Virus genome (UHGV): UHGV-1793687 | Length of the DNA: 11,083 nucleotides | Strand: one strand, 5' to 3' | DNA from: a virus | Part shown: one piece after another, positions 1,168-10,938 of the stretch | How the letters are laid out: every line of letters begins with the position of its first letter | Position numbering within the stretch: position 1 is the stretch's first letter | The notes under the pieces: generated by a model | Databases searched by the model: none | What the model saw: only the letters and a program-made list of their open reading frames with translations | Told to the model about the DNA's origin: nothing | Position numbers and translations under genes: made by a program

Positions 1168-2790
1168 ATGCCGTTACCATTCCCCTTCGATTTTAAACAT
1201 CCTGATTACCAGATGGTTTTTGAATGGCGGATGGAACGCCTACAGCGCATTCGCCAGAATCCTGAAATATTGCCTGCACTAAAACAGTTTTACCGAACCA
1301 ATCCGGCTCAGTTCATCATCGACTGGGGCATGACAACGGACCCGCGTAATATTGATTATGGCCTGCCGGTGACCATTCCGTTTTTACTCTTCCCTAAGCA
1401 GGAGGAGTGGATCCACTGGATTATGGAACGCTGGAGCAATCGGGAGAATGGTATTACCGAAAAATCCCGTGAAATGGGGCTCAGTTGGACCGCGATCGGA
1501 ATGGCATGCTCGCTTTGTCTCTTCAACAAAGAAATGGTTATCGGTTTCGGCTCCCGTAAAGAGGAATACGTCGACAGCACTGGTGACCCGAAAGCATTGT
1601 TCTGGAAGGCACGCAAGTTCGTGGAAACGCTACCTGTAGAGTTTCGCGGTTCGTGGAGCGAGAAGAAGCACGCGCCATATATGCGTGTTGAGTTTCCCGA
1701 TACTGGTGCCGTTATCAAAGGCGAGGCTGGCGACAATATCGGTCGTGGTGACCGTACCACGCTCTACCTGGTGGATGAGGCTGCATTCCTCCAGCGTCCT
1801 CTGCTGATTGATGCGGCGCTGTCGCAAACCACCCGCTGCCGTATCGACCTGAGTTCGGTTAACGGCATGGCGAACCCGTTCGCGCAGAAGCGTCACGGCG
1901 GGAAGATACCGGTATTCACATTCCACTGGCGGGATGATCCTCGCAAGGATGAAGAGTGGTATCGCAGGGAATGCGAGAAAATCGATAATCCGGTGGTGGT
2001 GGCGCAGGAGCTTGACCTGAACTACAGCGCATCTGCGGAAGGCGTCCTGATCCCGTCCGACTGGGTACAGGCTGCCGTCGACGCGCATATCAAGCTGGGC
2101 ATCCAGCCAACGGGCAAACGCCTGGGCGCGATGGACGTCGCCGACGAAGGCCGGGACAAAAACGCCTTTTCGACCCGTCACGGCTTCTTCCTGGAGAACG
2201 TGCGGGAATGGTCCGGCGTGGGCAGCGACATTTACCAGTCCGTTGAGAAGGTCTTCGGCTTTTGCGAACAGGACAACCTCGAAGAGTTTCGCTTCGACGA
2301 GGACGGTCTGGGCGCTGGCGTTCGCGGCGATGCACGCGCTATCAACGAACTGCGTAACGCTGCGCGCCGACCGTCAATACTCGCCACACCGTTTCGAGGT
2401 AGTGGCGCGGTATTTGATCCGGATGATGAAGCTGTTCGCGGGGACAACGGGCAAGCCGCCCGCCTGAACAAGGACTTCTTCGCTAACGCCAAGGCCCAGA
2501 GCTGGTGGCGTTTACGCAAGCTTTTCCAGAATACTTATCGCGCCGTGGTTGAGGGCATGGCCTACAACCCGGACGAAATCATCTCAATCAGCAGCGCCAT
2601 GGCGAGCAAAGACAAACTCATCATCGAGCTGTCGCAGCCGACCTACTCCATTAACGGCGTGGGGAAAATCGTTGTTGATAAACAGCCTGACGGCACCAAG
2701 TCGCCGAACCTCGCCGACTCGGTGATGATCAGCTACGCGCCAATGAATTCAGCCCTGAACATCTGGGAGCTGCTAGGGAGACAGGCCTGA
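1168..2790 (+). CDS. terL: Terminase large subunit
   Basis: 540-aa ORF immediately after terS. Contains a Walker-B-like hydrophobic run ending in DE ([11 protein letters not shown]) and an acidic C-terminal nuclease-like half. Its TGA stop overlaps the portal ATG (…cTGATGg…). Confidence 0.9.
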
Positions 2791-4259
2791 TGGCACGAAA
2801 CAAGCAAGCCTCTCAGCGAACGGCGCAGGCCACCGCTGATGGCTACGAGAACTTTGTCGCCCGCGTGGGGATGCAGACGCCTAACCAGCATTCAGCATCG
2901 ACCTACCGGGCGAACTTCACCAGCCGCAACCGCATGCTGGTGGAATGGTCCTATCGTTCGTCCTGGATCATCGGCGAAGCGGTCGACGCTATCCCGGATG
3001 ATATGACCCGCAAAGGCATTCGCATTACTTCGGAAATTGATGCAAAAGATCGCGGCATTCTCGAATCACAACTTGATGAGTTGCAGATCTGGGATGCGCT
3101 GAACGACGTGCTGAAATGGTCTCGCCTCTACGGCGGCGCGGTCGGCTTCATCATGATCGAGGGGCAGGCACCAATGACCCCGCTGCGGCTCGAAACCATT
3201 GGAGAAGGCAAGTTTAAGGGCATTCTCCCGCTCGACCGCTGGATGATTAACCCGGTGCTGACCCGCCGCATTAAAGAGATGGGGCCGGATCTCGGCAAAC
3301 CTGAGTTTTACGACGTGGTGACCACTGCAACGGGCATCCCGGCCTGGCGCATCCATCACAGCCGCCTGATTCGCTTCGATGGCGTCACGCTGCCATTCCA
3401 GCAGAAGATGACCGAAAACGAATGGGGAATGTCGGTTGTAGAGCGTATCTGGGATCGGCTTACTGCGTTCGACAGCGCCACTGTCGGCGCGGCTCAGCTG
3501 GTCTACAAAGCGCATCTGCGCACCTACAGCGTGGAGAAGCTGCGCGAGCTTATCGCGCTTGGAGGCCCGGCGTTCGAAGCGCTGCTGAAGAACATCGACC
3601 TGATCCGCCAGTTCCAGAGCAATGAAGGCATGACGCTTATGGACTCGCGGGATAAGTTCGAAACCCACCAGTACAGCTTTAGTGGTCTGGATGACATTCT
3701 TTCGCAGTTTGCTGAGCAGATCAGCGGTGCCGTTGGTATCCCGCTGGTACGCCTGTTCGGTCAATCCCCGAAAGGCTTCTCTACTGGTGATGCAGACCTC
3801 GCCAACTATTACGACCGGGTGAGCTCATTGCAGGAGCGCCGCTTACGGCTGCCGATGCGCCGGATACTGGACATTATGCACCGCTCGGAACTAGGTAAGC
3901 CGCTGCCGGACGATTTCACGTTTGAGTTTAACCCGCTATGGCAAATGTCTGACGTTGACCGCTCAACGGTGGCCGTAAACACCACCACTGCGATCAGCAC
4001 CGCGCTGGCTGATGGATTGATGACGCGTAAGGCGGCAATGACCGACCTGCGCGAAAACTCTGACGTCACTGGTATCGGAGCATCCATTACCGACGAGGAT
4101 ATCGAGAATGCCGAAGACGAAGCGCCGCCAGGCATCGGCGAACTTGGCGACAAACCGCCAGAGTCGCCAGGCGGAGATCCGATATCGAACGAGCCTACGG
4201 CAGATAGCGCGGGCGGTCGGGGATATCGTAAATGGGCGCTACGATGGTTCAAACGATAG
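2790..4259 (+). CDS. Portal protein (DUF1073 / HI1409-like phage portal family)
   Basis: 489-aa ORF whose start overlaps the terL stop by 1 nt. Size and position after terL fit a portal, and the N-terminal sequence resembles DUF1073-type portals as I recall them. The C-terminus is an acidic, Pro/Gly-rich, probably disordered tail. Confidence 0.8.
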   Translation: MARNKQASQRTAQATADGYENFVARVGMQTPNQHSASTYRANFTSRNRMLVEWSYRSSWIIGEAVDAIPDDMTRKGIRITSEIDAKDRGILESQLDELQIWDALNDVLKWSRLYGGAVGFIMIEGQAPMTPLRLETIGEGKFKGILPLDRWMINPVLTRRIKEMGPDLGKPEFYDVVTTATGIPAWRIHHSRLIRFDGVTLPFQQKMTENEWGMSVVERIWDRLTAFDSATVGAAQLVYKAHLRTYSVEKLRELIALGGPAFEALLKNIDLIRQFQSNEGMTLMDSRDKFETHQYSFSGLDDILSQFAEQISGAVGIPLVRLFGQSPKGFSTGDADLANYYDRVSSLQERRLRLPMRRILDIMHRSELGKPLPDDFTFEFNPLWQMSDVDRSTVAVNTTTAISTALADGLMTRKAAMTDLRENSDVTGIGASITDEDIENAEDEAPPGIGELGDKPPESPGGDPISNEPTADSAGGRGYRKWALRWFKR

Positions 4260-4881
4260 CGTCACCGAAATCATGGATGCGCTGGAGCGCTACAGCGAAA
4301 TCATCACCCCCTGGGCGACGAAGGTAGCTGAGAACTTCACCGCAGACATAGCGCGCCAGAATGAAAAGCAGTGGCGTCAACACAGCCGGAACATCAGCGC
4401 AGAGCTGCGCAACATGGTTGACCGCGCCCCGGTAGGCCAGGTGATGAAATCCATCGTCGCCGAGCAAATTAAGTACATCAAATCTCTGCCTCTTGAGGCC
4501 GCCGATCGGGTGTATGACATTCAGAACAAGGCCATCGAGGCTGTAGTAACTGGTGGCCGCGCTGAGCCATTCGCGAAAGAGATAGCTGCTTCCGGTGACG
4601 TGTCACGCTCACGAGCGAACCTTATCGCCCGGACTGAGCTTGGGCGCGCAACCGGTGCACTGGATCAGGCGCGTGCGCTGTCAATCGGCTCGAATGGTTA
4701 TATCTGGCGTACAGCCGAAGATGGCGACGTCCGGCATTCTCATCGAGAGATGGAAGGGAAGTTTGTCGAATGGGGCAAACCTCCAACGCTTGACGGCATG
4801 ACCGGTCACGCTGGCGAGCTCCCGAACTGCCGCTGTTACAAAGAGATCGTCTTCCCCAACCCTCATTCTTATCTCGCCTGA
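4108..4881 (+). CDS. Head morphogenesis protein, Phage_Mu_F / SPP1 gp7-like
   Basis: 257-aa ORF in the +1 frame relative to the portal. The C-terminal region (…ARTELGRATGALDQARALSIGSNGYIWRTAEDGDVRHSHREMEGKFVEW…) matches the Mu-F minor head protein motif. ATG 4108 has GAGGAT about 8 nt upstream but overlaps the portal 3' end by 152 nt; an alternative in-frame ATG at 4273 has a weak RBS. Confidence 0.75.
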   Translation: MPKTKRRQASANLATNRQSRQAEIRYRTSLRQIARAVGDIVNGRYDGSNDSVTEIMDALERYSEIITPWATKVAENFTADIARQNEKQWRQHSRNISAELRNMVDRAPVGQVMKSIVAEQIKYIKSLPLEAADRVYDIQNKAIEAVVTGGRAEPFAKEIAASGDVSRSRANLIARTELGRATGALDQARALSIGSNGYIWRTAEDGDVRHSHREMEGKFVEWGKPPTLDGMTGHAGELPNCRCYKEIVFPNPHSYLA

Positions 4882-4895
4882 ATCGCAGGTAAACC

Positions 4896-6116
4896 ATGAA
4901 ATATTTTTTCAATACCCGACTGGGGGAAACCCGCTATCAGCTTGCTGACGGCTCGTTGCTGTGCAGAGACGTGCCGATAGGACGAACAGGTAAGCAGCTC
5001 TATGGTGCTGATGACCTGCCAAAACTGAAACCCGACAAGCTCGGTGAGATAGTCGTCACGCGCTCTCCTGAGCAGGTATTCCATCCCGCCACACTTGCCT
5101 CATTCGAAGGAATGAGTATCACGGTGTTGCATCCCGAGGATGAAAACGGGGATGTGCGGCTGGTGAATCCAGAGAACTGGAAAGAGCTTGCTGTCGGGCA
5201 TCTTCAGAATGTGCGGCGCGGGACTGGTGACCAGTCTGATTTGATGCTGGCTGACCTTATCGTCAAAGACGAAAACGCTATTCAGCTTATCGAAGATGGC
5301 CTGCGTGAAGTGTCGTGCGGCTATGACGCGGAGTACGAGCAGACCGAGCCCGGAAAAGCCGAGCAGGTCGATATTACCGGAAACCATGTGGCTCTTGTCC
5401 CTAAAGGCAGAGCCGGAAATCGTTGTGCAATTGGAGACAGAGACACAATGGCAAATCAAAAGAAAAGCTGGTGGACCCGCATGCGCACGGCCATCAAAAC
5501 GGGTGACGCTGACACCATGAACGAACTGCTGGACTCTGCGCCAGCGGCGGTAACGGGTGATGAAGGGGATCTGCCGAGCGGCGTTAACCTCAACATTAAC
5601 CTTTCACCGCAGCAACCATTGCCGGACAAAAAGCCGGAAATGGGCGGAGAGCCAACCGGCGACGGCGAGGACGATATCAAAACCTTGCTCAAAGCCCTGC
5701 TGGCTAAGCTGGAAGGAAATGCGACGGGCGATAACGACAATAAGCCTGACGATAATCCGACCGGTGACGGCGAGGACGATGAAGAGGAAACCACGATTAC
5801 TGGTGACTCAGCCTGGCGTGCCGAGGTTATCGTCCCAGGTATCGATCTGAGCCGTAAGGTGAAACCGACCGCGTTCAAACGTGATGTGCTGGCTTCCGCT
5901 GACAAAACGCTGGTTCGCCAGATAGTCGGCGATGCGGATATCCGCAAATTGCCGAAACAATCGGTCAACATGGCGTTTAATGCCGTGTCAGAGATTGCCA
6001 AAGGGCGAAACACCCGCAGCACCACGGGCGATGCACAACGTCCAAATATGGGCATGACCAGCATCGCTTCCCTGAACAAACAAAACGCCGACTTCTGGTC
6101 TAACCGCAAAGGATAA
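4896..6116 (+). CDS. Putative capsid scaffold / maturation protease-like protein (DUF2213-like) with acidic repetitive C-terminal region
   Basis: 406-aa ORF with ATG 4896 and AGGT upstream. The N-terminal ~190 aa is globular; the C-terminal half is low-complexity and acidic, with repeated TGD and PTGDGEDD motifs. It sits between the Mu-F-like gene and the capsid gene, where a scaffold or protease is expected. Confidence 0.7.
   Translation: MKYFFNTRLGETRYQLADGSLLCRDVPIGRTGKQLYGADDLPKLKPDKLGEIVVTRSPEQVFHPATLASFEGMSITVLHPEDENGDVRLVNPENWKELAVGHLQNVRRGTGDQSDLMLADLIVKDENAIQLIEDGLREVSCGYDAEYEQTEPGKAEQVDITGNHVALVPKGRAGNRCAIGDRDTMANQKKSWWTRMRTAIKTGDADTMNELLDSAPAAVTGDEGDLPSGVNLNINLSPQQPLPDKKPEMGGEPTGDGEDDIKTLLKALLAKLEGNATGDNDNKPDDNPTGDGEDDEEETTITGDSAWRAEVIVPGIDLSRKVKPTAFKRDVLASADKTLVRQIVGDADIRKLPKQSVNMAFNAVSEIAKGRNTRSTTGDAQRPNMGMTSIASLNKQNADFWSNRKG
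5652..5780 (+). repeat. Imperfect direct repeat inside the scaffold-like CDS (two ~24-nt copies encoding PTGDGEDD)
   Basis: ccaaccggcgacggcgaggacgat at 5652-5675 and ccgaccggtgacggcgaggacgat at 5757-5780 match at 22 of 24 positions and are 105 nt apart, in frame. Confidence 0.6.
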
Positions 6117-6120
6117 TCCA

Positions 6121-6624
6121 ATGACTGCATATCTGTACCGGATGCCTGTTGGCATTGCCGGGGCTATCTCTCGCCCGCAGGACTTAACCGTCGAACCGGT
6201 GGTCCTTAAATCCGATAACGCCTTTGCTGCCTATGGGCTGGCTGGTAAATACGATGATGACGGTTTTTTCGTGCCGCTGGAGGACGGTGACACCGCCGAC
6301 AAGGTGAAGGGGATCTACGTTCGTCCGTATCCGACCACATCGCAGCCAGACATGGTTCGCCAGGTGGGGACGGATAAGAATTTCCCGGGCGACGCCATGA
6401 AACGTGGCTACATGACCGTTAACCTTGGATCTGGCTTCGATGCCAGCACCATCAAAAAAGGTGATCCTGTCTACGTGGTCGTTTCGCTCGATTCAACCAT
6501 TGACGTGCCGCTGGGCGGCTTCATGTCCACGTCCGTCAGTGGCAAAAACGTGGCGCTGACCAACGCCGAATTCACAGGGGCCGGTGACGCTAACGGCAAT
6601 GCAGAAATCTCCTGGAAGATTTAA
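6121..6624 (+). CDS. Hypothetical phage structural protein (position suggests head decoration or accessory capsid protein)
   Basis: 167-aa ORF with ATG 6121 and AAAGGA 7 nt upstream. It is tightly coupled between the scaffold-like gene and the major capsid gene. I do not recognise a family from the sequence. Confidence 0.65.
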   Translation: MTAYLYRMPVGIAGAISRPQDLTVEPVVLKSDNAFAAYGLAGKYDDDGFFVPLEDGDTADKVKGIYVRPYPTTSQPDMVRQVGTDKNFPGDAMKRGYMTVNLGSGFDASTIKKGDPVYVVVSLDSTIDVPLGGFMSTSVSGKNVALTNAEFTGAGDANGNAEISWKI

Positions 6625-6635
6625 GGAACAGACGA

Positions 6636-7577
6636 ATGATTACTTTTGATCAGGCAACCGTTGATAGCTCTGGTGCCTTTCTCATCGGGGAGCTGGAGCG
6701 ACTCGACCAGACGCTGAACCTGCCGCTGGTGGGTTACACCTGGACCCGCGATATTCAGTTGCGTGAAGACGTTTCTATCGCAGATGACATTTCCAGCTGG
6801 ACTAACACCAGCTTTGGCGCTGCGGGTACTGGCGCAAATCCGAACGGTAAAAACTGGGTAGGCAAAGACTCAACCGCTATTGCTGGCGTGAACGTGGATA
6901 TCGGCAAATCCGGTAACCCGCTGAACCTGTGGGGGATGGAACTTGGCTGGACCGTTGTAGAGCTGGCAGCAGCTCAGCAGGTAGGTCGCCCGATTGACAC
7001 CCAGAAGTACGACGGGATGCAGCTCAAATGGCAGATGGACAACGACGAGCAGGTGTATGTTGGCGATTCCGCATTAAACCTGAAAGGCCTTGTTACCCTG
7101 AACGGTGTTCCTGTCAACAACGCTGCCAAAACGTGGGCAACCTCAACACCGGACGAAATCCGCGCAAGCATTAACCAGGTGCTGTCTGATGCGTGGGCCG
7201 CTTCTGGTTACTCTGTGGTTCCGCGTGATTTGCTGATCCCGCCAGAGCAGTTTGCTCTGTTGTCCAGCATCATCGTTTCATCTGCGGGTAACCAGTCCCT
7301 GTTGACGTACCTTCAGACTAACACCATCAGCTATCACCAGAACGGTGTTCCGCTGAATATCCGCGCGGTTAAATGGCTGAAAGGCCGTGGTGTGGGGAAT
7401 AAGGATCGCATGGTTGCGTACACCAACGATAAAAAATACGTCCGCTATCCGCTGGTGCCGTTGCAGAGCGTTCCTATCCAGTATCGCGGTCTGTACCAGA
7501 TTGCGACCTACTACGGCAAGCTCGGTGCGGTTGAGCCAGTGTACAAAGAAACCCTGTCCTACGTGGACGGTATCTGA
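6636..7577 (+). CDS. Major capsid protein (DUF2184-like, HK97-fold predicted)
   Basis: 313-aa ORF with ATG 6636 and AAGGA overlapping the upstream stop. Size, position after the scaffold-like gene, and a strong hairpin immediately downstream fit a highly expressed capsid gene. The family call is from memory of DUF2184-type capsid proteins. Confidence 0.7.
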   Translation: MITFDQATVDSSGAFLIGELERLDQTLNLPLVGYTWTRDIQLREDVSIADDISSWTNTSFGAAGTGANPNGKNWVGKDSTAIAGVNVDIGKSGNPLNLWGMELGWTVVELAAAQQVGRPIDTQKYDGMQLKWQMDNDEQVYVGDSALNLKGLVTLNGVPVNNAAKTWATSTPDEIRASINQVLSDAWAASGYSVVPRDLLIPPEQFALLSSIIVSSAGNQSLLTYLQTNTISYHQNGVPLNIRAVKWLKGRGVGNKDRMVAYTNDKKYVRYPLVPLQSVPIQYRGLYQIATYYGKLGAVEPVYKETLSYVDGI

Positions 7578-7587
7578 TAACCAGAAC

Positions 7588-7603
7588 GGCCCCGAAAGGG
7601 GCC
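7588..7603 (+). terminator. GC-rich stem-loop (GGCCCC-GAAA-GGGGCC) 3' of the capsid gene; likely mRNA-stabilising or partial terminator hairpin
   Basis: Perfect 6-bp G/C stem with a GNRA (GAAA) tetraloop, 11 nt after the capsid stop. No U-tract follows; an AAGGA RBS and the next ATG (7619) come directly after. Confidence 0.4.
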
Positions 7604-7618
7604 AGAAGGAAACTGAAA

Positions 7619-7903
7619 ATGGCAAAAGAAAAGCTGGTTACCATCCATGTTCACACCCCGTTTACGCTGACGCTCGGCGATCAGTCAAAACAGGAGTTTG
7701 GCCGGGGACGGCATAACGTGCCGGAAGAGGTCGCGTCTCACTGGTTCACCCAGGCGCACTCTGAGCTTTCCGAAAGCGTGATTAGCGACACCAATGATCT
7801 GCAACCCGTTATCGACAGCCTGCAAGCGCAGATTGCTGCCGCCCAGACTGGCGGTAATGGGGCGAAAGATGCCAAAGAATCAAAGTCTGCCAGCGGTAAG
7901 TGA
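7619..7903 (+). CDS. Hypothetical small phage protein (94 aa)
   Basis: ATG 7619 with AAGGAA about 8 nt upstream, directly after the hairpin. The C-terminus is low-complexity and Lys/Ala-rich (…[25 protein letters not shown]). No family recognised. Confidence 0.55.
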
Positions 7904-8276
7904 TTTTCGCCGCGACTTCCCGCAGTTTGCTGACCCTGCCAAATATCCCGAAGCGCAAATCCAGTTTCGTCTGAATCTGGCCGATGTGCTGCTGAGCGAA
8001 AACGTCACCGGCAAAGAGTTGTTTCCGTATTTTGCCGAGTTGTTCGTGGCTCACTACATGACGCTATGGGCGGCAGATAGCCGGGCAATGCTGGTTGGCG
8101 GCCCGGGCGGTTCAACCAATGGTGTTCAATCCTCCAAGTCCGTTGACAAGGTAAGCGTCAGCTATGACACCAGCGCGACGCTAAACCCTGACGCAGGCTT
8201 CTGGAATAACACCCGATATGGCGCTGAATTTTATCAGCTGATCACGATGTTCGGTGCGGGCGGTCGCCAGCTATGA
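7869..8276 (+). CDS. Hypothetical phage protein, DUF4054-like (putative head–tail connector component)
   Basis: The track ORF runs 7794-8276. In-frame ATGs at 7857 and 7869 both overlap the 3' end of the previous ORF. The …[55 protein letters not shown]… region resembles DUF4054 proteins found next to capsid genes. Start is uncertain. Confidence 0.6.
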
Positions 8277-8860
8277 GTTCCAAAAGCGGTGTAACAACGA
8301 GGGTGGATAACGCTAAGGCCATTCTGGATGCACTCAGGTCGCTAACCAAAAAGGATGTGCTGGTCGGCATTCCTGAAGAAGACAGCGAGCGTGAGGATGT
8401 TCCGTTTGGTAATGCCGGGATCGGCTATGTCAACGAATACGGCTCACCAGCGCAAAACATCCCCCCACGCCCGCACCTGATCCCCGGCGTTAAATCGGTA
8501 GAAGAACAGACAGTGCCGCAGCTCAAAGCAGCGGCGCAGGCTGCGCTTGATGGTAATGCGGCGGGTGCGGAAAGAGCGCTCAACCGCGCCGGAACGCTGG
8601 CCGCTAATGGCGTCAGGCGTTACATGACTATTACCGGCTTTACACCGCTTGCTGATAGCACCGTTGAAGCCCGCGCACGTCGAGGGCGCAAAGGGGCGAA
8701 AGCTGAGTTAGCACGCAGATCGGCAGACGGAAAGCTTAATGCTATCAACCCAGATTCTGGTCAATTGATAAGCAATGAGAATGTAAGGCCGTTGATTGAT
8801 ACCGGACAGTACCGCAGAGCCATTACCCATGTTGTGAGGGATAAAGATGCCGACTCTTGA
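8273..8860 (+). CDS. Hypothetical phage protein (possible HK97 gp10-like head-tail joining / neck protein)
   Basis: 195-aa ORF with ATGA start/stop overlap with the upstream gene. The C-terminal …[16 protein letters not shown]… is reminiscent of the gp10-family DTGxLRxSI motif. Function is inferred mainly from position. Confidence 0.6.
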
Positions 8861-9236
8861 TGTAACAGACGTGCTTTTCGACCCCGATTTTTGCGACTTC
8901 AACCTGTGGGTAACGCGTCGCTCGCAAACGGTTGACGATGACGGGATCGGCAGTGACAGCGAAGTTAAAACGCAGTTTGCCGGGGTTGTTACTGTTGACC
9001 GCTCCCTGGAAAACCGCCGCATGCAGGCCGGGCAGGTTATCAGCGGCGCGATTCTTATCGTGACAACTGAGCGGCTGACGCAGGGGCAGACTGGCCGTGA
9101 TGCCGATATCGTGACGTATCAGAACCGTGATTATCGCGTGACATTCGTCGACCCGTATACGGCTTACGGTGCTGGCTTCGTCCAGGCTCATTGTGAATTA
9201 CTGCCGTTTGATGGGGGAACGCCCATTGAGCAATAA
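8847..9236 (+). CDS. Hypothetical phage protein (neck / tail-completion candidate)
   Basis: 129-aa ORF with ATG 8847, GAGGG upstream, and a 14-nt overlap with the upstream gene. No family recognised. Confidence 0.6.
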   Translation: MPTLDVTDVLFDPDFCDFNLWVTRRSQTVDDDGIGSDSEVKTQFAGVVTVDRSLENRRMQAGQVISGAILIVTTERLTQGQTGRDADIVTYQNRDYRVTFVDPYTAYGAGFVQAHCELLPFDGGTPIEQ

Positions 9237-9777: not shown

Positions 9778-10938
9778 ATGACGCAGGGCTTACCTGTATC
9801 CAACGTTGTAAACGTTGATGTGATCATCTCGCCGAAAGCGGCTACTGGTCGTAACTTCGGCGCATTGCTAATCCTTGGCTCTTCCACTGTCATTCCGGTG
9901 ACAGAACGCATTCGCCTTTATGCGTCCGTTGAGGACATTGGCGAGGACTTCGGAGTCGACAGCCCGGAATATGAAGCGGCGCAGGTTTTCTTCAGCCAGT
10001 CGCCGAAGCCGACGCAGGTTTATGTTGGCCGCTGGGCGAAGACGCTGACCTCTTCCGAAGGTGGAAGCGTGGAAACCATCGTGCAAGCTGTTAATGCCTG
10101 CCTGCAATATACCAACTGGTATGGGCTGGTTGTCGCTGATGATGTTGCTGATGGCGGCGATGTGCTTGATGCTGATGACGTGATTGAGGTTGCTAAACTC
10201 ATCGAAGCGTCCAGCCTGAGCCGCATTTTCGGGGTAACATCTGCCGACGCCGATATTATCAGCACGACTTCGACGACCGATGTTGCGTCGAAATTAAAGG
10301 CTGGCAAGTATTCCCGTACCTTTGTTCAGTATTCCACCAGCAGCCCTTATGCGGCTGTTTCAGCTTTCGGTCGCGCGTTTACTGTCAATTTCAACGGCAG
10401 CAATACAACCATTACCCTGAAATTCAAACAGGAACCGAGCGTAACCTACGAAACGCTGACGGTAGGACAGGCGGCGGCTGTGGATGCGAAGAATGCGAAC
10501 GTGTTCGTGTACTACGCCAACGACACGGCGATCCTGCAACAGGGCGTCATGGCGAACGGTGACTTCTTCGACGAGCGCCACGGGCTCGACTGGTTGCAGA
10601 ACTACGTTCAGACCAATCTCTATAACCTGCTTTACACCAGCACCACCAAAATTCCGCAGACTGACGCCGGTGTGACCCGTCTGCTTTCCAACGTTGAACA
10701 GTCCATGGATCAGTCCGTCACGAACGGTCTGGTAGCGGCTGGCGTGTGGAATGGTGGCCCTATCGGACAGCTGAATTCCGGCGATACGCTGACCAAAGGC
10801 TATTACGTCTATGCACAGCCGCTGGTGCAACAGGCGCAGGCCGAACGCGAAGCGCGCAAAGCACCGTTAATTCAGGTGGCCTGTAAGCTGGCTGGCGCAG
10901 TTCATTATGCCGATGTGCAGATCAACGTGGTTCGCTAA
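9778..10938 (+). CDS. Tail sheath protein (DUF3383-like)
   Basis: 386-aa ORF with GGAGA upstream, immediately followed by a gene whose N-terminus matches the DUF3277 tail-tube family. The sheath-then-tube order is the canonical contractile-tail arrangement. The family call is from memory. Confidence 0.7.

Follow-up and report, generated by a model that had tools for sequence, protein, structure and literature searches.

What is the small open reading frame that lies between the major capsid protein gene and the DUF4054 head-to-tail adaptor gene of this virus, and is its product made and used in its own right? The frame occupies 7619-7903 on the plus strand of an 11,083-nucleotide stretch of the virus genome UHGV-1793687 (the window), where the listing of open reading frames gives it an ATG start, a TGA stop and a product of 94 amino acids. 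An earlier note on this DNA had proposed a small head-completion or decoration protein or an unannotated accessory gene, and had raised the possibility of a fusion with the downstream gene that it overlaps. The window spans the entire head/neck module of a temperate myovirus, with the following genes.

112-609: HNH endonuclease gene
560-1165: small terminase gene
1168-2790: probable large terminase gene, assigned by position only, with no Pfam match at 1e-3
2790-4259: portal gene
4108-4881: Mu-F-like gene
4896-6116: DUF2213 protease/scaffold gene
6121-6624: cement protein gene, upstream of the capsid gene
6636-7577, plus strand: major capsid protein (MCP) gene, PF09950, the constant upstream neighbour of the STY1053-family gene
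7619-7903, plus strand: STY1053-family gene, a short allele with a very probable in-frame deletion (NF047914, PHROG 2619, pN/pS)
7869-8276, plus strand: DUF4054 head-to-tail adaptor gene, 135 amino acids (Pfam PF13262, E 3.7e-27; PHROG 302; annotated starts of relatives)
8273-8860: Neck1 gene
8847-9236: head-tail adaptor gene
to 9774: tail terminator gene
9778-10938: DUF3383 sheath gene

The 94-residue protein matched the NCBIfam profile NF047914 (STY1053 family phage-associated protein) with 78 bits against a cutoff of 40 and an E value of 4.3e-22, residues 8-49 aligning with profile positions 1-42 of 42. Two PHROG profiles matched as well, PHROG 2619 over residues 3-76 (E 1.2e-30) and PHROG 6497 over residues 1-57 (E 2.4e-22). 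A search of 5.8 billion proteins found homologues in 130 protein clusters, the only identical sequence being the window's own record, and a profile of the N-terminal domain recovered 457 representatives at 50% identity from 1.84 billion proteins. By megablast, the locus was matched in 339 of 5,426 complete E. coli genomes (about 6%), and among the E. coli matches listed the RefSeq/PGAP label on the gene is "STY1053 family phage-associated protein". Given that label, the term "unannotated" does not apply. The STY1053-family gene is already catalogued and routinely annotated, and is neither an unannotated gene nor a recoding event.

Pooled pN/pS was 0.29 in the frame of the gene, as against 1.9 and 2.1 in the remaining two frames, and when the 43 N-terminal-domain codons that align without gaps were compared pairwise with relatives, dN/dS lay between 0.09 and 0.22. 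Conservation of the frame in homologous prophage cassettes had been suggested as a check, and the intact relatives do keep it open; interrupted copies are few and are isolated broken copies (L009, P0104 and P0110). The homologue clusters, the HMM scores and the frame-specific pN/pS together place the frame far beyond chance, and we regard it as almost certainly a genuine gene under purifying selection and a member of the STY1053 family (NF047914, PHROG 2619).

The gene also has a constant place in the genome. In a search with the 901 nucleotides from 7400 to 8300, the nearest isolated phages were the Citrobacter phage Omnitron (96% nucleotide identity) and the Salmonella phage SEN34 (93%). The order MCP, STY1053 gene, DUF4054 is kept in SEN34, vB_EcoM-689R2, Hafnia yong1, Acinetobacter Ab105-1phi and Burkholderia BgManors32, and it was found in all 41 of the genome loci recovered, which were drawn from contigs of one genome per species. 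These loci range over the Enterobacterales, Xenorhabdus, Arsenophonus, Cupriavidus, Ralstonia, Pseudomonas, Acinetobacter, Rhodanobacter and a Bryobacteraceae metagenome-assembled genome of the Acidobacteria. SEN34 gp8 (YP_009191614), Hafnia yong1 gp54 and the vB_EcoM-689R2 protein URC08853 agree with the window gene in family, N-terminal domain, gene position and a 35-nucleotide overlap with the adaptor gene. The STY1053 gene is the small gene between MCP and DUF4054 in the temperate-myovirus head module of the SEN34 / Ab105-1phi type, and the constant synteny makes it a core gene of that module and not an insertion. The gene is thus conserved and independent, and belongs with the genes for head/neck morphogenesis.

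In an AlphaFold2 model, the protein has four beta-strands (residues 6-35), a helix at residues 36-48 (pLDDT 80-87), a further helix at residues 62-77 and a disordered tail. The parts of the protein map onto the DNA as follows.

7634-7762, plus strand: family-defining N-terminal domain, residues 6-48, four beta-strands and one helix, with the motifs VHTPF, G30 and HWFxxAH (AlphaFold2, NF047914, conserved columns)
7763-7801, plus strand: acidic disordered linker, residues 49-61 (pLDDT below 50 at residues 51-58)
7802-7849, plus strand: residual heptad helix, residues 62-77 (AlphaFold2 helix; alignments with long alleles)
7850-7900, plus strand: Gly/Lys-rich C-terminal tail, residues 78-94, the last residue being Lys (alignments)

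The window protein has the expected residue at every invariant column of the family alignments, namely H12, T13, P14, F15, G30, A39, H41, W42, F43 and H47. The N-terminus had been described earlier as hydrophobic and beta-like; the four predicted strands agree with the second term, and the segment is not notably hydrophobic. The low-complexity basic C-terminus noticed at the same time corresponds to the Gly/Lys-rich tail, which is disordered in the model. Both the linker and the tail have counterparts across the family. The linker is acidic family-wide. In a set of 119 distant representatives its mean charge is -6; 92 of them have a positive charge over the C-terminal 15 residues, and 68 have Lys as the final residue. 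Relatives in which the gene does not overlap its neighbour also have basic tails, rich in Lys, Ala and Pro.

The arrangement of these parts is not fixed. In distant members the N-terminal domain is sometimes tandemly duplicated, or is located C-terminal to a basic disordered arm. Two distant members have a HeH-like motif at the C-terminus, detected with a regular expression and not with an HMM, and one member has RTX repeats in a Pfam scan of 18 close and 141 distant members. The same scans otherwise gave only weak matches to coiled-coil families (SlyX, DivIC, ATG16, Phage_scaffold) and no informative fused domain.

Close homologues differ in length, with products of 73/74, 94, 122, 129, 136, 143 or 150 amino acids in steps of whole heptads. 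The commonest forms in the family are those of 122-129 residues. Among the alleles, a 7-residue unit, IVDKDQL, is present in one to three copies and a 28-residue unit in zero, one or two copies, while the motif DSLQAQI, which is encoded by the 23-nucleotide repeat described below, occurs three times in the 150-residue alleles. Position a of the heptads is occupied by Ile or Asn and position d by Leu, a pattern that would be in keeping with a parallel dimer. The helix at residues 62-77 is the remnant of the coiled coil of the 122-150-residue alleles, and the DNA around it has one further feature.

7814-7836, plus strand: single copy of the 23-nucleotide repeat GACAGCCTGCAAGCGCAGATTGC, the deletion junction (DNA alignment with SEN34, L008 and L010)

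The long alleles have two copies of GACAGCCTGCAAGCGCAGATTGC around a core of 84-105 nucleotides, and the window has one copy with nothing between. We therefore consider it nearly certain from the alignment that, relative to the commonest forms, the 94-residue allele is an in-frame deletion that arose by recombination or slippage between 23-nucleotide direct repeats, with loss of 28-35 residues of the coiled-coil core. The 94-residue form makes up 15 of the 120 clusters listed. It occurs on at least three linker backgrounds, each of which is also found with 122/129-residue forms, which indicates that the deletion arose or spread repeatedly. A 73-residue form without any coil is found in isolated phages of the vB_EcoM-689R2 type, and its existence in isolated phages shows that the coiled coil is dispensable.

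The gene has diverged out of step with its neighbours. Identity between vB_EcoM-689R2 and the window is 97.1% for the MCP and 96.3% for the adaptor, but only 63% for the STY1053 protein; for Hafnia yong1 the corresponding values are 88.8%, 90.4% and 48%. The megablast matches show a gap at the STY1053 gene. To judge from these comparisons, the gene is a divergence hot spot, evolving much faster than the capsid and adaptor genes. One relative, L008, has an N-terminal domain identical to that of the window protein, together with an adaptor that is 96% and an MCP that is 88% identical.

At its 3' end, the STY1053 gene shares 35 nucleotides with the adaptor gene, which is read in the +1 frame. The DUF4054 frame has in-frame ATG codons at 7857 and 7869, both of which had been put forward as likely starts, and it is open upstream to 7782. 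The annotated starts in SEN34, vB_EcoM-689R2 and Hafnia yong1 all correspond to 7869, giving the 135-residue product and the 35-nucleotide overlap. The DUF4054 starts of the relatives are not further upstream, so the STY1053 gene stands as independent of its neighbour. Throughout the Enterobacterales, including Xenorhabdus and Arsenophonus, the overlap measures 14-50 nucleotides with the adaptor always in the +1 frame, the sizes of 35, 32 and 20 nucleotides being found in 12, 7 and 7 loci, respectively. The overlapping lineages, and exactly those, have an N-terminal extension of about 10 residues on the adaptor, MPKNQSLP[AT]V. No such extension is present on the adaptors of Cupriavidus, Acinetobacter, Pseudomonas and Rhodanobacter, which start at xxFRxDFPxF. 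Outside the Enterobacterales there is either a gap of up to 39 nucleotides or a 1-nucleotide overlap, and the relative frame is 0, 1 or 2. There is little doubt in our minds that the overlap is real and conserved. The overlapping segment contains a probable translation signal.

7859-7862, plus strand: G-run GGGG in GGNG codons, probable Shine-Dalgarno sequence for the DUF4054 gene, 6 nucleotides before the ATG at 7869

In overlapping relatives, the GGxG codons read GGGG, GGAGG, GGGGG or GGTGGTGA just before the adaptor ATG, and this placement of G-rich runs implies that the Gly-rich segment of the tail doubles as the Shine-Dalgarno sequence of the adaptor gene. The arrangement indicates that the two genes are probably translationally coupled and that their products are separate. 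The Lys and Gly content of the tail in the Enterobacterales appears to be partly forced by dual coding with the adaptor. We also considered the Lys-rich tail as a mere by-product of the overlap, and rejected this as a full explanation because the tails of non-overlapping relatives are likewise basic and end in Lys.

Because the DUF4054 frame is open from 7782, a +1 shift at any point of 7782-7903 would bring the two frames together, and the STY1053 frame could then be the first part of a fusion with the DUF4054 protein made by programmed frameshifting. However, the segment 7850-7903, in which the earlier note had recommended a search for a slippery motif, contains neither an X XXY YYZ heptamer nor a prfB-like CUU UGA motif, and AAG, the last sense codon, cannot re-pair in the +1 frame. 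A +1 shift would be needed, whereas -1 shifts are the common kind. The adaptor has an ATG and a G-rich Shine-Dalgarno sequence of its own, both kept in relatives; the +1 relation is not kept outside the Enterobacterales, where any relative frame and gaps of 1-39 nucleotides are found; and all annotations have two separate genes. A fusion is, on this evidence, scarcely credible.

Upstream of the gene, the MCP reading frame terminates with TGATAA at 7575-7580, and two features follow before the start codon.

7588-7603, plus strand: 6-bp GC-rich hairpin GGCCCC-GAAA-GGGGCC between the MCP stops and the STY1053 frame (RNAfold, -14.8 kcal/mol)
7606-7610, plus strand: Shine-Dalgarno sequence AAGGA, 8 nucleotides before the ATG at 7619

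The strong ribosome-binding site directly after a hairpin, as described in the earlier note, was thus found again, and relatives keep AAGGA or GAGGA at an equal distance from the start. On the plus strand the hairpin has no U-tract, and a consensus scan called it terminator-like on the minus strand only. Relatives in the Enterobacterales have a hairpin at the equivalent place with different stem and loop sequences, and in several of them a T-run directly follows. In Xenorhabdus, the MCP stop and the STY1053 start overlap as TAATG. With a hairpin in the Enterobacterales and TAATG coupling in Xenorhabdus, the level of expression cannot be inferred reliably.

Homology searches gave little guidance on function. 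Pfam gave no match to PF14000, the family of lambda gpFI, even at E values up to 10, and searches of PDB sequences with full-length and N-terminal domain profiles returned coiled-coil or chance matches only. No significant match was obtained among solved or predicted structures, and there was no sequence or fold match to the known capsid decoration or cement proteins (PF22758, PF23982, phi29 gp8.5). In PADLOC, the window protein had 0 matches, and the long alleles matched only the coiled-coil parts of SMC-like models, with E values above 1e-4. In the literature on STY1053, on DUF4054 with cryo-EM and on the carrier phages (SEN34, AbTJ / Ab105-1phi), we found no functional or proteomic data, and the XM1 and MMNM papers do not resolve the slot.

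The position of the gene was compared with that of small genes in better known head operons. In lambda, the gene order is E - FI - FII, and the STY1053 gene is in the slot of FI. The FI product, gpFI, has a bridging role and stimulates the docking of prohead, terminase and DNA (PMC13595911), and it is not part of the virion. An alignment by hhalign of the STY1053-domain profile, built from 153 sequences, with 120 gpFI homologues had a probability of 0.08%. In gpFI (PF14000; PDB 2LSM) the folded domain is C-terminal, the reverse of the STY1053 order, and the arm is acidic, in contrast to the basic STY1053 tail. YqbF of the Bacillus subtilis skin prophage (PF21488 and PF14553; PDB 2HJQ) has neither a coiled coil nor a Lys-rich tail; its comparison, against 45 homologues, gave a probability of 0.14%, and the STY1053 protein has no PF21488 or PF14553 match. 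The likeness to gpFI and YqbF would therefore be one of position and architecture (a small folded docking domain with a flexible arm), and homology is not supported.

The slot between capsid and adaptor genes is also filled in E217 (gp26) and Pam3 (gp8), two phages with a related head module whose structures have been solved. Their head modules have in common with the window a cement protein, a PF09950-type capsid, an adaptor and a DUF3383-type sheath, and the published virion models of E217 and Pam3 do not include the gp26 and gp8 products. E217 gp26 was tried as a relative of the STY1053 protein and was set aside, there being no similarity detectable by hhalign.

Our preferred reading, to which we give a probability of about 0.38, is that the STY1053 protein may be a tether under low constraint that acts during head assembly or DNA packaging, much as gpFI does in lambda from the corresponding gene slot. 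In such a protein, the N-terminal domain would dock on a component of the head or portal vertex, be it the capsid protein, the portal or the adaptor, while DNA or an acidic surface would be the partner of the basic tail. The coiled coil would only dimerise the protein and space its two ends, which would explain why its length varies freely and why it can be lost. The length of the spacer would be reset repeatedly by repeat-mediated gain or loss of whole heptads, and the protein would not be a stoichiometric building block of the shell. The modular design, the permutable order of the parts, the fast evolution and a slot that is never lost fit a tether or helper better than an integral component of the shell. 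Consistent with this reading, distant members retain the acidic linker and the basic tail, two members have HeH-like ends, and the N-terminal domain can be duplicated or placed C-terminal to a basic N-terminal arm. The dispensability of the coil in the 73-residue alleles, as in vB_EcoM-689R2, and the much faster divergence of the gene than of its neighbours point the same way, as do the virion models of E217 and Pam3, in which the products of the corresponding slot, gp26 and gp8, are missing. On the other hand, no relationship to E217 gp26 could be detected, and little can be concluded for the STY1053 family from a virion model that lacks it. The preferred reading is further weakened by the lack of profile homology to gpFI or YqbF and of a PF14000 match, by the acidic character of the N-terminal arm of gpFI, and by the partial forcing of the tail composition in the Enterobacterales. 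The broader proposal, that the STY1053 family is an unrecognised, widespread class of head-assembly or packaging tethers that would act as functional analogues of gpFI in PF09950/DUF4054 temperate myoviruses, is more doubtful still.

The same observations could also be caused by other functions. In phi29, the gene directly after the capsid gene encodes the head fibre gp8.5, a dispensable protein that binds the capsid through an N-terminal base and has an alpha-helical stalk. By analogy, the STY1053 protein could decorate the virion without being essential, as a fibre on the head or a whisker on the neck, anchored on the capsid or neck by its N-terminal domain, with a dimeric or trimeric stalk that projects the Lys-rich tail. 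Variation of the coil by whole heptads and 28-residue units is like that of exposed fibres, and rapid divergence between conserved structural neighbours is as expected of an exposed or weakly constrained protein. Tandem N-terminal domains in some relatives and the translational coupling to the adaptor gene, to which TAATG adds coupling to the MCP gene in Xenorhabdus, also agree with a decoration. The stalk, however, is missing from the 73-residue alleles and almost gone from the 94-residue alleles, forms that persist in several species, and there is no globular distal domain. By comparison, gp8.5 is much larger and trimeric and has a distal domain, whereas the window allele is almost stalk-less; there was no sequence match to gp8.5, and no gp8.5 chain was among the fold matches listed. 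In addition, a hairpin or terminator separates the STY1053 gene from the highly expressed capsid gene in the Enterobacterales, and the true cement gene is upstream of the capsid gene. On balance, we rate a decoration as almost as probable as the tether.

A dedicated chaperone of the DUF4054 adaptor is clearly less probable. Translational coupling would keep its synthesis in step with that of the adaptor, which it would keep monomeric or, once packaging is over, bring to the portal before departing itself. Such a chaperone would account for the adaptor gene being always adjacent and for the overlap throughout the Enterobacterales, and the homologous adaptor of E217 is reported to oligomerise only on the portal. 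In L008 the N-terminal domain is identical to that of the window protein and the adaptor, at 96%, is closer to its window counterpart than the MCP, at 88%, which is a weak hint of linkage to the downstream gene. Against tight co-adaptation, the adaptor of vB_EcoM-689R2 is 96% identical to that of the window, yet its STY1053 protein is coil-less and only 63% identical; moreover, the two genes are uncoupled outside the Enterobacterales, with a gap of 37-39 nucleotides in some relatives. Least probable among these functions, and by our estimate quite improbable, is an accessory or host-interaction gene (a moron, or a gene for anti-defence or superinfection functions) that happens to lie inside the head operon. 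The gene is small and forms a divergence hot spot between conserved genes, as such a gene might. However, its position in the head module is constant across Gammaproteobacteria, Betaproteobacteria and the Acidobacteria metagenome-assembled genome, it shares the strand of its neighbours, to which it is tightly coupled, and a consensus scan found no promoter of its own. The PADLOC matches amount to coiled-coil noise. The accessory role suggested in the earlier note thus fits poorly with the constant synteny of the head module.

With a presence in about 6% of complete E. coli genomes, the STY1053 gene ranks as a very common prophage gene, and its place is one of the classic "mystery slots" of head operons. 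It offers three experimental handles, namely the alleles that differ by heptad steps or lack the coil, the fast evolution, and a tail that doubles as the ribosome-binding region of the adaptor gene. To our knowledge, the gpFI type of packaging-helper mechanism is known essentially only from lambda. If the STY1053 protein is indeed a gpFI-like packaging helper, that mechanism would be extended from lambda to a large group of myoviruses.

The STY1053 gene (window 7619-7903) is a hot spot of divergence or mosaicism. Between the window and the related phage vB_EcoM-689R2 (L003), protein identity is 97% for the major capsid protein (MCP) and 96% for the DUF4054 adaptor, and 63% for the STY1053 protein; with Hafnia phage yong1 (L006) the corresponding values are 89%, 90% and 48%. 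Such low identity between conserved MCP and DUF4054 flanks suggests that the gene is subject to cassette exchange or to much weaker constraint. In a few relatives the gene is frameshifted or truncated (L009 from Apirhabdus apintestini, at 2501-2845, and the homologous proteins P0104, P0110 and P0112); the C-terminus is then out of frame and the family-defining N-terminal domain is intact. Presumably these copies belong to decaying prophages or reflect sequencing errors within the repeat region.

The deep search showed that the domain arrangement varies among distant members of the family. Some (P0128, P0129, P0134 and P0252) have a tandem pair of STY1053 domains, and in others (P0157, P0177, P0181, P0221, P0247 and P0255) the domain is C-terminal, following a basic disordered N-terminal arm.

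The DUF4054 adaptors of the Enterobacterales (window 7869-7900; related loci L008-L047) have an N-terminal extension of approximately 10 amino acids, MPKNQSLP[AT]V, which is absent from the homologues of Betaproteobacteria, Acinetobacter and Pseudomonas. Overlap of the STY1053 and DUF4054 genes is confined to lineages with this extension. Two other overlaps in the window involve uncertain start codons. For the Mu-F-like head morphogenesis gene, the longest ORF starts at 4108 and shares about 150 nt with the portal gene's 3' end (4108-4259); since its Pfam match begins no earlier than residue 137, the gene may in fact begin at a later codon. From its listed GTG start at 9169, the tail-terminator ORF shares 68 nt with the gene before it (9169-9236), and its PHROG and Pfam matches, from residues 22 and 43, make a later start likely. 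The annotation of the related Salmonella phage SEN34 gives the equivalent genes an 11-nt overlap.

Two features lie in the terminase region:

112-609, HNH_3 / His-Me finger endonuclease gene, directly 5' of the small terminase gene and overlapping it
1168-2790, 540-aa ORF in the large-terminase position

The HK97 HNH protein gp74 helps cos cleavage, and the HNH gene adjoins the small terminase gene here in the same arrangement. No Pfam match at E <= 1e-3 was found for the 540-aa ORF.

One further feature follows the capsid gene:

7588-7603, GC hairpin

Comparison of the window hairpin with equivalent intergenic regions across the Enterobacterales (L001, L003, L006, L008-L015, L022, L028 and L032-L048) showed that the structure is kept and that the stem and loop sequences differ. 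In several relatives a T-run 3' of the hairpin makes it a true intrinsic terminator. The window hairpin lacks a T-run on the plus strand and is flagged as resembling a terminator only on the minus strand. It probably sets the ratio of capsid to neck expression, either as an attenuator or by stabilising the mRNA.
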